Shown: positions 6,262 to 30,727 of the stretch, in pieces
How the letters are laid out: each line of letters starts with the position of its first letter
How positions within the stretch are numbered: position 1 is the stretch's first letter
Origin: an uncultured Solirubrobacterales bacterium
Lineage (GTDB): Bacteria; Actinomycetota; Thermoleophilia; Solirubrobacterales; Solirubrobacteraceae
Direction: 5' to 3'
Assembly (NCBI GenBank): GCA_963826395.1
Contig: CAWGWP010000001.1
Location: forward strand, 441,768-505,767
Length of the DNA: 64,000 bases
Notes under the pieces: model-generated
What the model was told of the DNA's origin: nothing
Seen by the model: the letters and a program-made list of their open reading frames with translations, nothing else
Database searches by the model: none
Made by a program: the position numbers and the translations under genes

Positions 6262-6654
6262 AAATCTTCGGGGAGGATCAGGTTCGCGTCGAGCGCGGCG
6301 ATGAAGCGGTCGACCTCGTCGGCCATGTTGGCCTGTGCGAGCCGCTGGAGGTCGGCGAGCATGTCGGCGAGCCCGTCTTCCAGGCGATCCTCCAGGTCCT
6401 CGACCTCGGACTGAGAGTAGACGCCCTCGGCGAACCACTCGCAGTTGGGGCAGAGCAGCAGCAGCTCCCAGCGCGACTCGTCGACCTCCGACCAGGAGTG
6501 CGGCTGCACCAGCGAGCAGTTGCACTCCGGGCAGATGTGAAGCGGCCTGCCGGGCGCCTCGGCATTGTCCTCGTGGAAGCGGACCACTTCGATCTTCCGG
6601 CCGCTCGGTAGGACGATTCTGTGTACGGAGTGGTTGATTCGTGCCTTTGTCCAC
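6258..6654 (-). CDS. Hypothetical Zn-ribbon protein (CPEC...CPNC), probable frameshift just after start
   Basis: GGGAG RBS then GTG at 6654; coding frame HRIVLPSGRKIEVV..LHICPEC..CPNCEW..ILPEDF. Confidence 0.7.
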
Positions 6655-6675
6655 TGATGTCTCCCGGTATGCCTG

Positions 6676-6703
6676 GTATCGGCGTCGGGGTAGGAGACCT
6701 TGA
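6676..6703 (-). promoter_or_regulatory. sigma28/WhiG-type promoter TCAAG-N15-GCCGATAC
   Basis: Close match to TAAA(G)-N15-GCCGATAA consensus just upstream of RBS and GTG 6654. Confidence 0.65.
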
Positions 6704-23957: not shown

Positions 23958-23999
23958 TGCATGTCGACAGCTCTGACGACCAAGAGAAAGGAAGCAGCG

Positions 24000-24178
24000 A
24001 TGTTGCTGAAGGACAAGTTTGCGGTGATCTACGGGGCGGGTGGTGCGATCGGCGGTGCCGTCGCACGCGCCTTTGCGAGCGAAGGGGCCAAGGTTTTTCC
24101 CCACCGGGCGCCTCCGACAAGGCGAGCGGGATGACGGGAACCACCGTCAACCTGACCATGGGCAGCCTGGACGACTAG
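24000..24178 (+). pseudogene. SDR oxidoreductase with large internal deletion
   Basis: N-terminus MLLKDKFAVIYGAGGAIGG joined to C-terminus ASDKASGMTGTTVNLTMG. Confidence 0.85.
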
Positions 24179-24229: not shown

Positions 24230-24460
24230 CTACGCGGCGAGCGACTGCGTCCTAGCCCGGTTGCGCGCGACCCGCCTGACGCTCGCCTGGCGCCCCTCGG
24301 GCGATGCAATCAAGGACGGCTGTGTCTGCTGCAACGCGATCGCAATGCTCCACCTACGGCTAAGGATCGCGCCGGCGATCGCGACGGGATCCGCGCGGTA
24401 CTGGCCGCTCGTAACGCGCTTCTTTAGCTCCTGCAGCTTGATGGCGCGATCATCGTGCAT
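24230..24460 (-). CDS. FlgM C-terminal-like small protein, copy 1
   Basis: R..KLQELKKRVTSGQYRADPVAIAGAIL matches FlgM sigma28-binding pattern; AGGAG RBS. Confidence 0.7.
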   Translation of the reverse strand: MHDDRAIKLQELKKRVTSGQYRADPVAIAGAILSRRWSIAIALQQTQPSLIASPEGRQASVRRVARNRARTQSLAA

Positions 24461-24475
24461 AAGCGTTCATCTCCT

Positions 24476-24503
24476 GCATCGGCGCTGCGCGCGCGGCTCT
24501 GGA
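24476..24503 (-). promoter_or_regulatory. sigma28-type promoter TCCAG-N15-GCCGATGC
   Basis: Boxes and spacing conserved before all three FlgM-like genes. Confidence 0.6.
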
Positions 24504-24565
24504 TCCGGTCGTGACCCCAGATCGATGGCGGGATAGACGGGCTCCGGCCGATGCCGAGGAAGTCG

Positions 24566-24802
24566 TCATCGCCCATTGTGTGAGCCGCTTTGCGTCGCGG
24601 TCTCGTTGCGCGCGACGTCGGGCGTAAGTGTGTAGGTCTCACTGGCCCCGCAGCGCGAGCACGTGTAGTCGATCGAGGGGATCGCGCGCGGGGGACCGCT
24701 CGGAGGGTCATGCTGCTCGTGTGCGGTGCTGGGGACAAGGTGATACGTGGTGAGAGCACCGCAGCGACTGCAGGTGTAATCGATTGACGGAACCGGGCTC
24801 AT
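24566..24802 (-). CDS. Small protein with two PSIDYTCSRCGA repeats
   Basis: AAGGAG RBS; exact 12-aa duplication with CxxC. Confidence 0.7.
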   Translation of the reverse strand: MSPVPSIDYTCSRCGALTTYHLVPSTAHEQHDPPSGPPRAIPSIDYTCSRCGASETYTLTPDVARNETATQSGSHNGR

Positions 24803-25074
24803 CCTGATCCTCTCCTTGTGTTAATGATTGGCGATGTCTGTTTGGCGAGCGGCCAACTTGGCATTTCCGGGCAGGTGCCAACCGGGCCGTTCGTCGACGT
24901 GGGTCTTCAAGCTGCGTTCGTGCCTAGTAGACCCGCCGCGGGCTGACAACGGTTCAGCTCGTTCATGGCCAAGCTTCTGTGGCTCCTTCAGCACTAAGCG
25001 CCGGCCGGGCTGCGAGACCCGTGCAGTGCGAGGTGTCCTGACCGATCTACGGTTTCGGAGATAATGCGCCCGGC

Positions 25075-25839
25075 ATGGATTACGGTCTACGCGGCAGAGT
25101 GGCGCTAGTCACCGGGGCCGCCTCGGGCATCGGCCAGGCGACGGCGCAGCTACTCGCCGGCATGGGCGCGCGCGTCGTGGCGTCCGACATCGATGCCGAT
25201 CGCGGTGTCGCCACGGTCACCGCGCTCAGCGACGCCGGGCATGACGCGGTCTTCGTCGCGGCAGACGTCACCGACGATGAGGCCGTTGCCGCGCTCGTGG
25301 CCAGCGCGACCGACACATATGGGCGACTCGACTGCGCGGCCAATTGCGCCGGTGTCGGCGGCGGGCATGCGACAACCCATGAGTACCCCGACGATCGCTG
25401 GGACGAGATCATGGCGATCAACCTGAGGGGCACCTGGCTGGCGATGCGGCGGGAGATCGAAGCGATGCTCGAGCAGGGGGATGGCGGCACGATTGTCAAC
25501 GTCTCTTCGACGCTCGGCGTACGCGGCTCGCCGTTCGCCTCGCCCTACAGCGCCAGCAAGCACGGAGTACTCGGGCTCACACGCACCGCGGCGATTGAGT
25601 ACGCACCGGCTGGCATCCGTGTCAACGCCGTCTGCCCAGGCGCAATCGACACGCCGATAATGGACGAGACGTTCGAGCGCTTCCCCGGATTTCGCGAGAG
25701 CCTGATCGGATTCGTGCCGATGGGTCGCTTGGGCCGCCCCGCCGAGGTCGCCAGCGCGATCGCGTGGCTGAGCTCTGACGCCGCGTCGTTCGTGACGGGT
25801 GAATCGCTCGCCATCGAAGGCGGCCTGCTCGCCCGCTGA
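25075..25839 (+). CDS. SDR family oxidoreductase
   Basis: TGAASGIG, NCAG, YSASK, NAVCPG. Confidence 0.95.
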   Translation: MDYGLRGRVALVTGAASGIGQATAQLLAGMGARVVASDIDADRGVATVTALSDAGHDAVFVAADVTDDEAVAALVASATDTYGRLDCAANCAGVGGGHATTHEYPDDRWDEIMAINLRGTWLAMRREIEAMLEQGDGGTIVNVSSTLGVRGSPFASPYSASKHGVLGLTRTAAIEYAPAGIRVNAVCPGAIDTPIMDETFERFPGFRESLIGFVPMGRLGRPAEVASAIAWLSSDAASFVTGESLAIEGGLLAR

Positions 25840-25899
25840 CCAGCCCGCCAGGGCCGCCATGTGAAGGGCAGTTTCGCGGCTAGAGGGCAAGCTCGAGTC

Positions 25900-26085
25900 C
25901 TCGGTTCACGAGTGGTGAACAAGCCGGTGGCTCCGCCGTAGAGGCCGGTCCCGCTCGTGAGCTTTCCTTTGCCGGTGAACGAGAAGGCGCTATTCGGGTT
26001 CGCGGTGCTCGTCCCGTTGAAGGTGCCAGTGAACGAGCCCGGCGGCCCGAAGTTCGTGAACGCGACATTTAGCCTGCCGTTCCAA
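25900..26085 (-). pseudogene. Fragment of beta-rich secreted-type protein
   Basis: Reads GSFTGTFNGTSTANPNSAFSFTGKGKLTSGTGLYGGATG without start or proper end. Confidence 0.45.
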
Positions 26086-26176
26086 AATGACGCCCGGATC
26101 AGTGGCCCCGCCGGGGCACGACCAGGCGTCTACAGAACTCCCGCTGGAGCGCGTCGTCAGGGCGCGTCGTCAGCTG

Positions 26177-26413
26177 CTAGGCCGCGAGGTCTTGCGCGCC
26201 GACGAGTGCGCGGGAGCGAGCAACGCGTCTGACGCGTGCGCGGGGCCGGTCCGCCGCTGCGATCGAGGACACCGGCTCCGGCGGCAACGCGATGGCGACG
26301 CTCCACCTGCGGCGCACGATCGCGTCGGCCACCGCGTGTGGATCGACGCGGTATTCGCCGCTGGTGACCCGCTTCCTCAGCTCTTCCAGCTTGATGTCGC
26401 GATGATCGTGCAT
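26177..26413 (-). CDS. FlgM C-terminal-like small protein, copy 2
   Basis: RDIKLEELRKRVTSGEYRVDPHAVADAIV. Confidence 0.7.
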   Translation of the reverse strand: MHDHRDIKLEELRKRVTSGEYRVDPHAVADAIVRRRWSVAIALPPEPVSSIAAADRPRARVRRVARSRALVGAQDLAA

Positions 26414-26477
26414 GAGTGCTCACCCCCTGCATCGGCGCTGCGTGGGCCGCTCTGGATCGGGTCATGACCCCAAATCG
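26181..26477 (+). repeat. 297-bp direct repeat copy A
   Basis: Matches 26937-27233 with about 3 substitutions by eye. Confidence 0.95.
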
Positions 26478-26567
26478 CCGGCACTGATCGAGCAGTCGCT
26501 CGGGGCAGAGCAGAGGGACCCTCGGGACGGGGAAGTGGGCTATACGCCGGCACGTCCTCGCTCTACG

Positions 26568-26867
26568 ATGCATGCGTTGAGTCTTCTGGCCTATCTGATC
26601 ATCCTGTTCTTTGTAGGCCTATTCATCGGCGCCTTGGCACGGCTGCTACTGCCCGGACCGGACCCGATGGGGATTGGTCTGACGGCGCTGGTCGGACTGT
26701 GCGGGACCTTCAGTGCCGGGCTGTTCTCGTGGTACGTCCTGCATCGCCACGGCGCGGGCCTCGTGCTCTCGGTTGTCTTCTCGATGCTGCTCGTGTGGCT
26801 CTTCCGCCGCCTGCGTGCAGCCGGATCCGGTCGGAGGACACTTGGAGCCCGGCGAGGGCCCCCCTAG
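26568..26867 (+). CDS. GlsB/YeaQ/YmgE (transglycosylase-associated) stress membrane protein
   Basis: GLFIGALARLLLPGPDPMG...G..G pattern, 3 TM. Confidence 0.85.
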   Translation: MHALSLLAYLIILFFVGLFIGALARLLLPGPDPMGIGLTALVGLCGTFSAGLFSWYVLHRHGAGLVLSVVFSMLLVWLFRRLRAAGSGRRTLGARRGPP

Positions 26868-26932
26868 CCGGCGCAGGTCGGGGCGCGGACGGCCAGCGGC
26901 GCCGGAGCGCGGCGCCGACCGAGTTCTGGCTG

Positions 26933-27169
26933 TTACGCCGCGAGGTCTTGCGCGCCGACGAGTGCGCGGGAGCGAGCAACGCGTCTGACGCGTGCGCGGG
27001 GCCGGTCCGCCGCTGCGATCGAGGACACCGGCTCCGGCGGCAACGCGATGGCGACGCTCCACCTGCGGCGCACGACCCCGTCGGCCACCGCGTGTGGATC
27101 GACGCGGTATTCGCCGCTGGTGACCCGCTTCCTCAGCTCTTCCAGCTTGATGTCGCGATGATCGTGCAT
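26933..27169 (-). CDS. FlgM C-terminal-like small protein, copy 3
   Basis: Differs from copy 2 only at AI->GV. Confidence 0.7.
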   Translation of the reverse strand: MHDHRDIKLEELRKRVTSGEYRVDPHAVADGVVRRRWSVAIALPPEPVSSIAAADRPRARVRRVARSRALVGAQDLAA

Positions 27170-27233
27170 GAGTGCTCACCCCCTGCATCGGCGCTGCGCG
27201 GGCCGCTCTGGATCGGGTCATGACCCCAAATCG
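26937..27233 (+). repeat. 297-bp direct repeat copy B
   Basis: See copy A; offset 756 bp. Confidence 0.95.
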
Positions 27234-28248: not shown

Positions 28249-28737
28249 TCACGGCAGAGCCCGCGCCCAGCTCATCAGGAAGGTCCCGGGAGCCGGATCC
28301 GCGGACGACTCGGCCTGACCACGGGAGGGAAACCGCCGGGCCGCCATCTCATCACGGTCTCGACCGACTGCCCCGGCGCTCAGCGTGAACCACACGGTCT
28401 TGCCGCTGTCCGGTTGCTGCTCCACGCCCCACCGCTCGGAGAGCATCTCGACGATCTGAAGGCCTCGGCCGGTCGGCTCGTCCGGGCTGGGGAAGCGCAT
28501 CGTCGGCGTGCCGCCGCCCTGGTCGGTGATCGCGACACGGATCTCGCCCGCGCGCTGCTCGACCACGAGATTGAAGCTCGTCTGCCCGTGGCGAATGCCG
28601 TTGGTCGCGAGCTCCGAGACCATCAGCTCAACTGACTGCCTGACGTCGAGTGGCACCTCGCTCAGCGCGTCGGTCGCAAACCGCCGCGCCGCCGGAACCG
28701 ACAGGGGATCGGCCGGAAAGGTGCGCTCGGCCCTCAC
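28249..28737 (-). CDS. RsbW-like anti-sigma/HATPase protein
   Basis: SVPAARRF, LMVSELATN, D.GGG, GRGLQIV, GKTVWF. Confidence 0.9.
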   Translation of the reverse strand: MRAERTFPADPLSVPAARRFATDALSEVPLDVRQSVELMVSELATNGIRHGQTSFNLVVEQRAGEIRVAITDQGGGTPTMRFPSPDEPTGRGLQIVEMLSERWGVEQQPDSGKTVWFTLSAGAVGRDRDEMAARRFPSRGQAESSADPAPGTFLMSWARALP

Positions 28738-29057
28738 GGCGTCACCGCCAGTTTCTCGCCGAGTCCCATCGCCGTCACGACACGTCGCAGGAGCGGACTC
28801 GGATTACGGAGCTCGAAATCGTCCACGATCGTCGCCCAGCGCACCCACAGCGCGATCGCGGAGCTGTCGGCGAACCGCAGGCCGGCGGCATCCACGGTCA
28901 GCTTCGGGGGGTGCTGGGCCAGTACAGGGGCGACTCGCGCCTCGAGCGCGTCGATACCGCTGATGTCGAGGTCGCCCCCGATCCGGACGAGCGCATTTCC
29001 AGCCGCGTCTGTCGCCACTTCGACCTGCGGGTTGGTCTCGGCTTCTAGCTCTTCCAT
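28734..29057 (-). CDS. STAS anti-anti-sigma factor
   Basis: GDLD, LRFADSSAI. Confidence 0.88.
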   Translation of the reverse strand: MEELEAETNPQVEVATDAAGNALVRIGGDLDISGIDALEARVAPVLAQHPPKLTVDAAGLRFADSSAIALWVRWATIVDDFELRNPSPLLRRVVTAMGLGEKLAVTP

Positions 29058-30727
29058 CGCAGCCCCACGATCGCTATGTCATCTGCGCCGGACTGGAGCT
29101 CACTCACCAGCCTGCCCAGCAGGTCCGACAGCGCGATGTTCTGGCCGACCGCCGCCCGGCGTAGACGCGCGAGGCCCTCGTCGAGATCTTCTCCGCGGTG
29201 CTCGATCAGGCCGTCGGTGAAAGCCACAAGCGTGGAGGCGGGTGGGGCGGCGATCGTCGTCGAGGTATACGAGGCCCCACGCTCGACCCCGATCGGGAGG
29301 CCGATGTCGCCTTCCACGTATTCCCCGGCGCCGTTCTGGATCAGCAGGGGCGGTAGGTGTCCAGCGCTCGTGACCGTGATCGCGCGCCGCTCGATGTCGA
29401 CGAGCGCAAAGAGAATCGTCGCGAGCTGTCCGCTGTCGGAGACGTTCAGGAGGTGGGAGAGCTTGGTGAGGATCTCGGCAGGAGTGTCGTGCTGAGCGGC
29501 GTAGGCCTTGATCGCGTAGCGCAGCAGCGCCATCGTGGTTGCGGCCCGCAGACCGCGTCCCGAGACATCGCCCACCACAAGCAGCAGCCGACCGTCCTCG
29601 AAATCGATCACGTCGTACCAGTCACCGCCGATCTCGACGCCATCCTCGCCCGCCTCGTAGCGGGCGCTGGTTTCGACACCGGGAATCTGCGGGAGCACAT
29701 CGGGGAGTAGCGCGTGCTGGAGGGTCTGGGCGATCCCACGCTGCTCGGCGTAGAGACGCCGATTCTCGTTTGCGCTGACCTCAAGGCGCTCGGCGAGCCG
29801 CTCTGCGTCGCGGCGGCGGCGGACCAGGCTCAGCGTCACACCGGTCGCCGCCAGCGTCAGCAGTACGCCTGCCACCACGATGATCCATGGCAGGTCCCGC
29901 GGAAGCGAGCCCGCCAGCGGCTCGTGAGAGGACATCGCCAGCGTGAACGCGCTGTTCCCGAACGGGACCGTCGCAATAGACGTCTGGCCGCGCAGCGGGA
30001 GCCGATCGAGATCCGTCACGAGCAGATTCGGGCGTTGCTGGTTCCGCCCGAGATAGAGCGCGTAATCCAGTCCTGCGAACTGGTTGGTGCTCTGTAGACG
30101 CGACCGGCGGTTTGCGGGCAGCGGGCTCTCGCCGTAGGCGACGTACCCCCCGGGCACGCCGGGCGTCGCAAACGCGTATCCGAGGCGAGCGTCAGCGCCC
30201 GTGAGCAAGCCGATCACGTTCAGCTGGGACCCCGCCGCCAGCCGCGCGAAGAACGCCGACGCTCCGGACGGCGATACCCCCAATTTGGGCTGGACCCCGT
30301 CGATGGCGACCGGGCCACGTTGCGGCGACGACTTGCGCCAGAGCGACACAGACGCGAACTGCTTGCCGGGGCCCGTCCCTACGTACTGGCCGATCAAGCG
30401 CTTGAACTTCGCCACGTTTCCGTTGGTCGCATCAGCCAGTTCGGCGGCGGAGGCGAGCGGTGTTTGGACCGTGGGGAGCGCTTCCGCGATCAGTGCAGCG
30501 GCGTCGCGAACGCGTAGCCGCAGAAGCCGCTTTTCGTTGTTGGAGTACTGGGAGCTCGAGACCAGCGCGAGCGCCGCGGTGACCAGGAGCCCGACAATCA
30601 GTGCCGCCACGGGCAGCCAGAGCAGCGAGTGCTGACTGGCCGCGCCGGCCTGTGCCGGTTGTTGCTCGACAGAATCACTCGCGGGCCCGCTCCCGGCCAG
30701 CCGCTCAGAGTCCGAAGAGCTCATCAC
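29045..30727 (-). CDS. Membrane sensor PP2C/SpoIIE (RsbU-like) phosphatase
   Basis: 2 TM + extracellular domain; LQHALLP, IGGDWYD, VGDVSGRG, SAGHLPP, FTDGL, DDIA. Confidence 0.92.
   Translation of the reverse strand: MMSSSDSERLAGSGPASDSVEQQPAQAGAASQHSLLWLPVAALIVGLLVTAALALVSSSQYSNNEKRLLRLRVRDAAALIAEALPTVQTPLASAAELADATNGNVAKFKRLIGQYVGTGPGKQFASVSLWRKSSPQRGPVAIDGVQPKLGVSPSGASAFFARLAAGSQLNVIGLLTGADARLGYAFATPGVPGGYVAYGESPLPANRRSRLQSTNQFAGLDYALYLGRNQQRPNLLVTDLDRLPLRGQTSIATVPFGNSAFTLAMSSHEPLAGSLPRDLPWIIVVAGVLLTLAATGVTLSLVRRRRDAERLAERLEVSANENRRLYAEQRGIAQTLQHALLPDVLPQIPGVETSARYEAGEDGVEIGGDWYDVIDFEDGRLLLVVGDVSGRGLRAATTMALLRYAIKAYAAQHDTPAEILTKLSHLLNVSDSGQLATILFALVDIERRAITVTSAGHLPPLLIQNGAGEYVEGDIGLPIGVERGASYTSTTIAAPPASTLVAFTDGLIEHRGEDLDEGLARLRRAAVGQNIALSDLLGRLVSELQSGADDIAIVGLRWKS

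Follow-up and report, generated by a model that had tools for sequence, protein, structure and literature searches.

The described protein closest to the subject of this work is FlgM, the anti-sigma factor of sigma28. The C-terminal part of FlgM binds region 4 of the sigma factor, the N-terminal half holds the export information, and the FlgM of Bacillus subtilis is reportedly secreted, unlike the protein that we propose here. We analysed a stretch of 64,000 nucleotides (nt) of contig CAWGWP010000001.1 (positions 441,768 to 505,767, assembly GCA_963826395.1) from an uncultured bacterium of the family Solirubrobacteraceae, order Solirubrobacterales, hereafter the window, which contains three copies of a very short flgM-like gene, denoted mini-flgM. 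The C-terminal domain of mini-FlgM matches both the FlgM profile and the solved FlgM chains (PF04316, TIGR03824; FliA-FlgM complex, PDB 1RP3), the gene also appears to have its own sigma28-type promoter, and a sigma28 is present in the genome. Mini-FlgM differs from FlgM in that it lacks the N-terminal half and, in one branch, ends in LAA; the gene lies neither beside flgN nor in a flagellar cluster and is kept without the export apparatus; and the protein probably pairs with WhiG2 rather than with the flagellar sigma factor.

Release or control of a sigma28 without secretion has several precedents. The Helicobacter pylori FlgM is described as mainly cytoplasmic and relieved without secretion (PMC3930126), but is still tied to the flagellum via FlhA, whereas no flhA was found in the present genome, which is 83.8% complete. 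In Pseudomonas aeruginosa, the HsbA-FlgM partner switch likewise releases sigma28 from FlgM independently of export (PMC5085249), although it employs the flagellar FlgM together with a STAS protein, and no conserved STAS linkage is seen at mini-flgM loci. In B. subtilis, the response regulator DegU~P is stated, in a secondary source, to raise flgM transcription and thereby damp the sigma28 regulon (PMC4793158); the operator described below is a distinct palindrome. The switch formed by RsiG, WhiG and two molecules of cyclic diguanylate (c-di-GMP) in Streptomyces, Rubrobacter and Thermoleophilia involves the same type of sigma factor and a similar predicted regulon, comprising pili and the genes for diguanylate cyclases (DGC) and phosphodiesterases. 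RsiG is described as the anti-sigma factor of WhiG2, and the RsiG of Thermoleophilia as a single-motif protein (PMC8325347). Mini-FlgM belongs to a different family and fold and would be a second inhibitor with no need for c-di-GMP.

A 2026 survey splits WhiG into WhiG1 and WhiG2, reports that almost all actinobacterial flagellar clusters lack FlgM and gives the control of WhiG1 as unknown (PMC13595943); its main text nowhere mentions Thermoleophilia. The text of a 2023 survey states that, relative to the basal classes, FlgM is missing from the later ones, but its Table S2 leaves flgM blank in four Solirubrobacterales rows (PMC10746217). No prior description of mini-FlgM was found in the literature searched, most subscription papers being outside the coverage; a search combining FlgM with Thermoleophilia yields only PMC10746217.

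A flagellum-independent form of FlgM

A sequence-only reading of the window had singled out three orphan FlgM-like open reading frames (ORFs) of 76-78 amino acids (aa) at 24230, 26177 and 26933 on the minus strand. All three are present, each passes the FlgM profile cut-off, as that reading anticipated, and two features that it did not mention, a shared LAA C-terminus and a fourth copy outside the window, can be added.

24230..24460, minus strand: mini-flgM copy 1, 76 aa; FlgM C-terminal domain, basic linker and LAA C-terminus; ATG start
26177..26413, minus strand: mini-flgM copy 2, 78 aa, LAA end; Pfam FlgM match; ATG start
26933..27169, minus strand: mini-flgM copy 3, 78 aa, LAA end; Pfam FlgM match; ATG start
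contig C1:510877-511161, about 5 kb past the right end of the window: mini-flgM copy 4, between a sortase gene and a convergent gene that we take to be thiL (infA is also named; both labels come from our own reading of the sequences)

With a curated PF04316 cut-off of 25 bits, copies 1 to 4 score 26.8, 29.0, 27.5 and 25.3 bits, and in the window copies the match covers only residues 3 or 5 to 33, that is, profile positions 24 or 26 to 54 of 55. PF04316 is the only Pfam family that these copies match at E<=1, and the RsiG domain PF22802 is not among the matches. In the two of the four copies that were scanned with the full-length model TIGR03824, only model positions 64 or 66 to 95 of 98 are reached. 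The family profile has two significant matches in PDB, both of them FlgM chains (9wsf_B, residues 77-99, E 3e-5; 1rp3_B, residues 57-77, E 3e-4), and the automatic database labels of some relatives already read 'FlgM'. The N-terminal half that carries the export information is absent: the domain begins at residue 3-5, and an in-frame stop lies two codons above the ATG. The short N-terminus is a family trait: of 151 relatives with the motif, 129 have the conserved Tyr among their first 30 residues (median position, 21). Since the FlgM domain is recognized whereas the full-length, location and export features of FlgM are lacking, we file mini-FlgM as a FlgM variant; it is a flagellum-independent form that extends well beyond the window.

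Copy 1 shares about 76% DNA identity and 58-60% protein identity with copies 2 and 3. The third codon position is the commonest class of change in 8 of 8 comparisons of cores or whole ORFs, with no ties with position 1 and some narrow leads. The single-chain model of the 78-aa protein has a mean predicted local distance difference test (pLDDT) of 59.8 and a predicted template modelling score of 0.23, with helices at residues 4-17 and 25-41 followed by an unstructured tail, a prediction of too low quality to support a search by fold. A search of the ESM Atlas gave best scores of 0.86 and two clusters with a minority FlgM share (24% and 13%), which are leads only.

Distribution and origin

The Pfam FlgM domain is detected in 64 of 121 genomes of the family, and a core-only profile of 63 rows finds the FlgM core in 89 of the 121, usually as a single copy; near-duplicates, six fragmentary or apparently foreign loci, two mis-anchored rows and several other loci found with Pfam were left out of this profile. 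Three unpublished genomes are among those counted, G003 in the family sample and G334 and G368 in the genus sample, and no claim is based on those alone. Among 60 genomes of the genus, 56 are positive, 47 with one copy and nine with two, and four have none; mini-FlgM is present in 28 of 28 high-quality genomes. The paralogue count that the sequence-only reading called for thus yields four copies in this genome, an exceptional number seen in no other genome of the genus. Mini-FlgM is found in 14 of 22 genomes from other families of the order, and the rest of the class gives 13 weak matches among 165. Homologous loci on genome contigs are titled Solirubrobacterales, Solirubrobacteraceae or Thermoleophilaceae in 40 of 41 cases, the remaining one being a Deltaproteobacteria metagenome-assembled genome (MAG).

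The locus between the sortase gene and thiL holds 41 of the 45 genus copies (scored from 48 loci), the window copies lie in a region of about 36 kb without synteny to the relative G010, and no flgM was found inside the flagellar clusters of the two relatives examined. We read mini-flgM as an ancestral, mostly single-copy gene at the fixed sortase-thiL locus, with occasional free-standing offshoots. The window copies are members of the free-standing branch with the LAA end; the extra copies probably arose by duplication within this branch, which is related to the ancestral gene, although 38 alignment columns are too few to order the events.

The presence of mini-FlgM is indifferent to that of flhA, both in the entire family sample (37 of 49 genomes with flhA, 52 of 72 without) and in its 77 high-quality genomes (28/39 and 26/38), and 19 high-quality genomes combine mini-FlgM with one sigma28 and no flhA. 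Sigma28 is found in 114 and RsiG in 113 of the 121 genomes. Of the seven genomes with no sigma28 match, two have mini-FlgM (73% and 79% complete, both with RsiG), and among high-quality genomes without any sigma28 the count is 0 of 4, three of these four belonging to one genus.

A WhiG2-type sigma factor in a host with no flagellum found

One sigma28, as foreseen from the window, exceeds the TIGR02479 cut-off in this genome, and 10 other long TIGR02479 matches fall below it. Its best family is WhiG (NF004935; 370 bits vs 343), and it carries K-Y-V-A-G-R where, in the alignment, the flagellar-cluster sigma factors of relatives have K-Y-I-V-[YF]-K. The spacing of this signature equals that of the residues K57, G61 and R62 given for c-di-GMP binding by WhiG2 (PMC13595943). 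By its signature residues, the single sigma28 is of the WhiG2 type. The genome also encodes a single-motif RsiG, separate from mini-flgM, and ClpX.

The expectation that the protein is not exported fits the rest of the genome: neither flhA nor a flagellin gene was found in the 83.8% that is covered, and 96 ORFs from the flagellar regions of the relatives G010 and G088 gave only matches of the paralogue type or to flanking genes. The 48-kb flagellar cluster of G010 maps between two genes that are less than 4 kb apart inside contig C1; because G088 keeps its cluster elsewhere, this empty site is good but incomplete evidence of flagellar absence.

A type IV pilus locus encoding PilB with MshEN, a PilT-like protein and PilC is located on contig C7:360882-367423. 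Its two pilin genes are almost identical, and each is preceded by a sigma28-type promoter and a c-di-GMP-I riboswitch. Near-consensus sigma28 promoters, picked by eye, precede two pilins, two GGDEF genes, a PilT-like ATPase and an MshEN protein; the promoter-only genome scan supports near-consensus cases only, because it is noisy (117 matches). WhiG2 is predicted to drive the type IV pilus and c-di-GMP genes. The WhiG regulon described for Rubrobacter includes pilus and DGC genes (PMC8325347).

Promoters, operator and a two-component system

The sequence-only reading had placed a sigma28-type promoter upstream of each ORF, with a palindrome beside the -35 element. The promoters are found at exactly the positions given, and both elements are conserved across relatives.

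24476..24503, minus strand: copy 1 promoter, sigma28-type (-35 TCCAG, 15 nt, -10 GCCGATGC); a sequence match with predicted function
26429..26456, minus strand: copy 2 promoter, sigma28-type; TCCAG-N15-GCCGATGC match
27185..27212, minus strand: copy 3 promoter, sigma28-type; TCCAG-N15-GCCGATGC match
24503..24520: copy 1 operator palindrome, degenerate (core GGTCGTGACC at 24507-24516); sequence match
26456..26473: copy 2 operator palindrome (core GGGTCATGACCC at 26459-26470), ending 2 nt upstream of the -35
27212..27229: copy 3 operator palindrome (the same core at 27215-27226); sequence match

TCCAG-N15-GCCGATGC occurs three times against 0.01 expected, a number reached in 0 of 100 shuffles, although the three matches are not independent draws because the copies are homologous. 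In relatives, 89 loci gave 42 distinct upstream regions that pass the loose filter T..A[GT]-N15-G[CT]CGA[TA]; in these, the spacer is variable and position 5 of the -35, a column not forced by the filter, is G in 42 of 42. The upstream pattern is present at 54 of the 84 loci with enough upstream DNA, and a matrix made from the 42 promoters ranks the window copies as the first three in this genome and copy 4 as the seventh. Mini-flgM is thus likely to be transcribed from a sigma28-type promoter.

Although the filter did not select for it, the palindrome GGGTC-N2-GACCC shows a column identity of 83-95% in the 42 promoters, where it ends 2 nt above the -35; it occurs within two mismatches in 34 of them. 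GGGTCATGACCC is present at only two sites of the 4.56-Mb genome, both in the window (26459-70 and 27215-26). A loose operator pattern proved noisy and was replaced by the strict pattern TDGGGTCNNGACCCBAT, which has 74 matches in 43 of the 121 family genomes and none with the reversed control. In this genome alone, the operator is weakly distinguishable from background (three sites above score 17 in 4.6 Mb, vs 0-2 in shuffled 2.1 Mb).

Among 65 operator sites examined, the commonest flank is an operon of a HisKA_3 kinase and a NarL/LuxR regulator (at least 15 sites), followed by an FtsH-like gene (11), mini-flgM (6) and then by pilins, flagellar fliA (2 upstream) and c-di-GMP-I riboswitches; the riboswitch was confirmed at 3 of 3 operator loci of relatives tested. 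When loci were picked by the regulator protein instead, the palindrome was found with at most one mismatch in 20 of 30, vs 1 of 30 in the control (a 750-nt window about 1 kb upstream, at the kinase start). The site upstream of the response regulator gene in this genome has two mismatches. Of 63 genomes with the regulator, 28 have strict operator sites elsewhere than at its operon, vs 3 of the 58 genomes without it; kin are not independent in these counts. The regulator search scored 25 candidates per genome, no NCBIfam cut-off was met that would name the protein, and a motif search found 0 papers with the operator motif. We favour the prediction that the NarL/LuxR response regulator binds the GGGTC-N2-GACCC operator, and the position of the operator suggests that it probably acts as an activator rather than a repressor.

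The kinase-regulator pair, uncharacterised, lies at contig C5:533460-535133 and at the corresponding family loci with the palindrome upstream, divergent from a rhodanese/MoeB-like gene; the predicted regulon of the system comprises FtsH-like and QRPTase-domain genes, pilins, fliA and c-di-GMP riboswitches. Two further operator-like palindromes flank the gene of a secreted-looking low-complexity protein beside an ECF-like sigma gene (contig C1:649206-649948).

The LAA end of the free-standing branch

A C-terminal LAA is recognised by ClpX. As in the ssrA-type degrons that are read by ClpXP, the LAA end of mini-FlgM is kept at the protein level: the codons of LAA and the stop codons vary among copies, and the linkers differ in length and sequence. 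Among distinct C-termini from loci that were found with core peptide patterns and confirmed with the full-length query, LAA ends 9 of 20 free-standing proteins and 0 of 54 syntenic ones, and AAL, LAL or VAF ends five more of the 20; the background is 10 LAA ends among 2441 proteins of this genome. Degradation of mini-FlgM is putative, and we give even odds that its LAA end is a working degron. No report of an LAA-type tail on any FlgM was found in literature searches. In the syntenic copies, a conserved-looking tail (...QNECSYP...GTQTHSS) was considered as a functional motif and rejected as the antisense shadow of the overlapping convergent thiL gene. The syntenic tails are probably incidental because they run antisense into thiL, as the overlap indicates; the tail of copy 4 also overlaps.

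Sigma binding and the proposed circuit

Structure prediction with the sigma28 of the genome, proposed from the window, gave weak support. The complex of WhiG2 with residues 1-40 of copy 2 scores 0.59, vs 0.00 for the best control, with contacts that agree by at least 74% between runs and a partner pLDDT of at least 74. On calibration, 116 of the 157 solved pairs attained the mark, as did 2 of the 215 mismatched ones; of these, only 18 solved pairs and both mismatched ones scored 0.60 or below. Likeness to the solved FliA-FlgM complex could explain why the score passed the mark. The model does not separate WhiG2 from FliA as the partner. The case for WhiG2 rests on co-occurrence, and WhiG2 is probably the target of mini-FlgM.

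We propose, with a probability of roughly 0.6, that mini-FlgM is a cytoplasmic, non-exported feedback inhibitor of WhiG2 that acts beside RsiG, is gated by a two-component system and, in the LAA branch, is cleared by proteolysis. When c-di-GMP falls, RsiG would release WhiG2, which would transcribe the pilus and c-di-GMP genes together with mini-flgM; mini-FlgM would then bind region 4 of WhiG2 and damp it, a negative feedback independent of c-di-GMP. A NarL/LuxR regulator at the GGGTC-N2-GACCC palindrome beside the -35 would gate the amount of this brake, probably as an activator, and extra mini-flgM copies would raise the inhibitor dose. In the free-standing branch, the LAA end would make the protein a substrate of a ClpXP-type protease, with proteolysis replacing flagellar export as the exit. 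More tentative, and in our view short of even odds, is the full picture in which the Solirubrobacterales FlgM was freed from the flagellum, its remnant of about 35 sigma-binding residues becoming a second anti-sigma factor of WhiG2 that is wired to an undescribed two-component regulon, with a ClpXP tag taking the place of export in one branch.

Several observations weigh against the proposed inhibitor. The full-length equivalog TIGR03824 was missed in both copies scanned (27.0 and 28.1 bits vs a cut-off of 40.75), and, because of this and of the absent N-terminal half, the affinity of mini-FlgM could be low. The gene is dispensable, being undetected in 12 of 49 flhA-positive and 20 of 72 flhA-negative genomes. 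The strict composite of operator and promoter precedes 17 of 41 syntenic and 1 of 4 free-standing genus copies (18/45), and no match to the regulator was obtained with the query used in 31 of 89 mini-FlgM genomes, including both same-genus genomes of the family sample. In the core-only genus set, LAA ends only 1 of 4 free-standing and 0 of 41 syntenic copies, and the count of 27 LAA ends among 62 profile matches is inflated because the profile contained the tail; the tmRNA tag of this genome ends in YAAA, not LAA. Finally, the assembly, 4.56 Mb in seven contigs, is 83.8% complete.

Four other explanations can be considered. Mini-FlgM might instead be the relocated anti-sigma factor of this lineage for the flagellar FliA (WhiG1-like), a leftover in non-flagellated genomes with three neutral duplicates. 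This would fit the known partner of FlgM, the flagellar sigma factor, as well as the failure to find any further flgM in two flagellar clusters, the presence of the operator before flagellar fliA at 2 of 65 sites and the recent duplication of copies 2 and 3. We consider this unlikely, since the gene is kept as often without flhA as with it (52/72 and 37/49), including the 19 high-quality genomes with a single-copy sigma28, is present in all 28 high-quality genomes of the genus, and retains promoter, operator and LAA across divergent free-standing copies. Only slightly less plausible is a mini-FlgM that binds WhiG2 without being a simple inhibitor, acting as a competitor of RsiG, as a shield of the sigma factor or as an LAA adaptor that drags WhiG2 to the protease: the ancestral copies lack LAA (0/54), and covering region 4 should block polymerase binding anyway, but only the C-terminal part of FlgM is present, and the model shows its tail without regular structure. 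RsiG, too, makes contact with regions 2 and 4 of the sigma factor (PMC7005675), and the title of one reference reports FlgM-modulated proteolysis of FliA.

Release by partner switching with a STAS anti-anti-sigma factor, in place of proteolysis, is suggested by a trio of genes for an RsbW-like kinase, a STAS protein and a membrane SpoIIE phosphatase (window 28249-30727, minus strand, 1-3.5 kb from copy 3) and has a precedent in HsbA-FlgM of Pseudomonas (PMC5085249). It appears improbable, because the trio does not recur at 12 other free-standing loci inspected by eye, only one of which has an RsbW-like neighbour, the 10 long TIGR02479 matches below the cut-off could be its clients, and LAA would be left unexplained. 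Least probable is an artefact, either a single gene doubled into copies 2 and 3 by assembly error or untranslated ORFs of which only the promoter-operator DNA matters. The 305 bp at 98% identity, 756 bp apart in an assembly that looks metagenome-type, might suggest the former, but five differences and unique flanks set copies 2 and 3 apart; in copy 1 and in many relatives, the frame, the Tyr motif and the LAA end persist while the codons vary; and the biology stands even with one copy fewer.

If the feedback inhibitor of WhiG2 is real, one sigma factor would have two structurally unrelated anti-sigma factors. About three-quarters of the genomes of one basal family carry a short FlgM outside the flagellar cluster, which alters the picture of FlgM-less actinobacterial clusters, and mini-FlgM offers an intermediate between FliA-FlgM and WhiG-RsiG control, with a candidate inhibitor for both sigma types, as well as a test case for proteolysis replacing secretion as the exit of FlgM. 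In addition, an uncharacterised two-component system of an abundant soil lineage gains a predicted operator. The predictions are open to testing with published assays.

Local duplication and neighbouring genes

Copies 2 and 3 are parts of a duplicated unit.

26173..26477, minus strand: 305-bp duplicated unit (operator, promoter, ORF, stop); five differences from the copy 3 unit
26929..27233, minus strand: 305-bp duplicated unit, second copy; five differences from the copy 2 unit
6676..6703, minus strand: TCAAG-N15-GCCGATAC, a possible further WhiG promoter outside the cassette, ahead of a small Cys-containing ORF

The suggestion of a promoter-plus-gene cassette spreading in multiple copies stands insofar as the unit begins just above the palindrome and ends 4 nt past the stop codon, thus running from operator to stop; it does not stand as to copy number, the gene being mostly single-copy (47/60), nor as to mobility, since neither terminal inverted repeats nor a target-site duplication was seen at the unit boundaries. 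A metagenome relative aligns to the unit from the identical 5' point, which is also the start of its contig, down to the stop codon, and the 12 free-standing loci inspected by eye represent about nine different gene contexts. Local duplication recurs, because two free-standing copies about 2 kb apart occur in two other Solirubrobacterales MAGs. Between copies 2 and 3 lies a hydrophobic ORF of 97 aa (window 26574-26867, plus strand) with no Pfam match, which we take to resemble transglycosylase-associated membrane proteins; recombination could delete it, because the 305-bp direct repeats flank it.

Directly downstream of copy 1 is a short-chain dehydrogenase-like fragment, apparently truncated (window 23998-24178, plus strand), and just upstream, on the same strand as copy 1, a 78-aa ORF with two near-identical CxxC zinc-ribbon repeats and only sub-threshold Pfam matches (window 24566-24802, minus strand). 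The similar promoter that had been noticed at 6676-6703 is there as TCAAG-N15-GCCGATAC, but has no in-register operator. The small Cys-containing ORF under it (window 6273-6703, minus strand) has no Pfam match and is divergent from a tatA-like gene; the relative G010 has a similar end of this ORF at the syntenic place. In another relative, a long ORF that by eye resembles HD-GYP proteins carries the FlgM core at its C-terminus (G032:C2:463820-466915, with other long frames), a possible fusion to a c-di-GMP enzyme.

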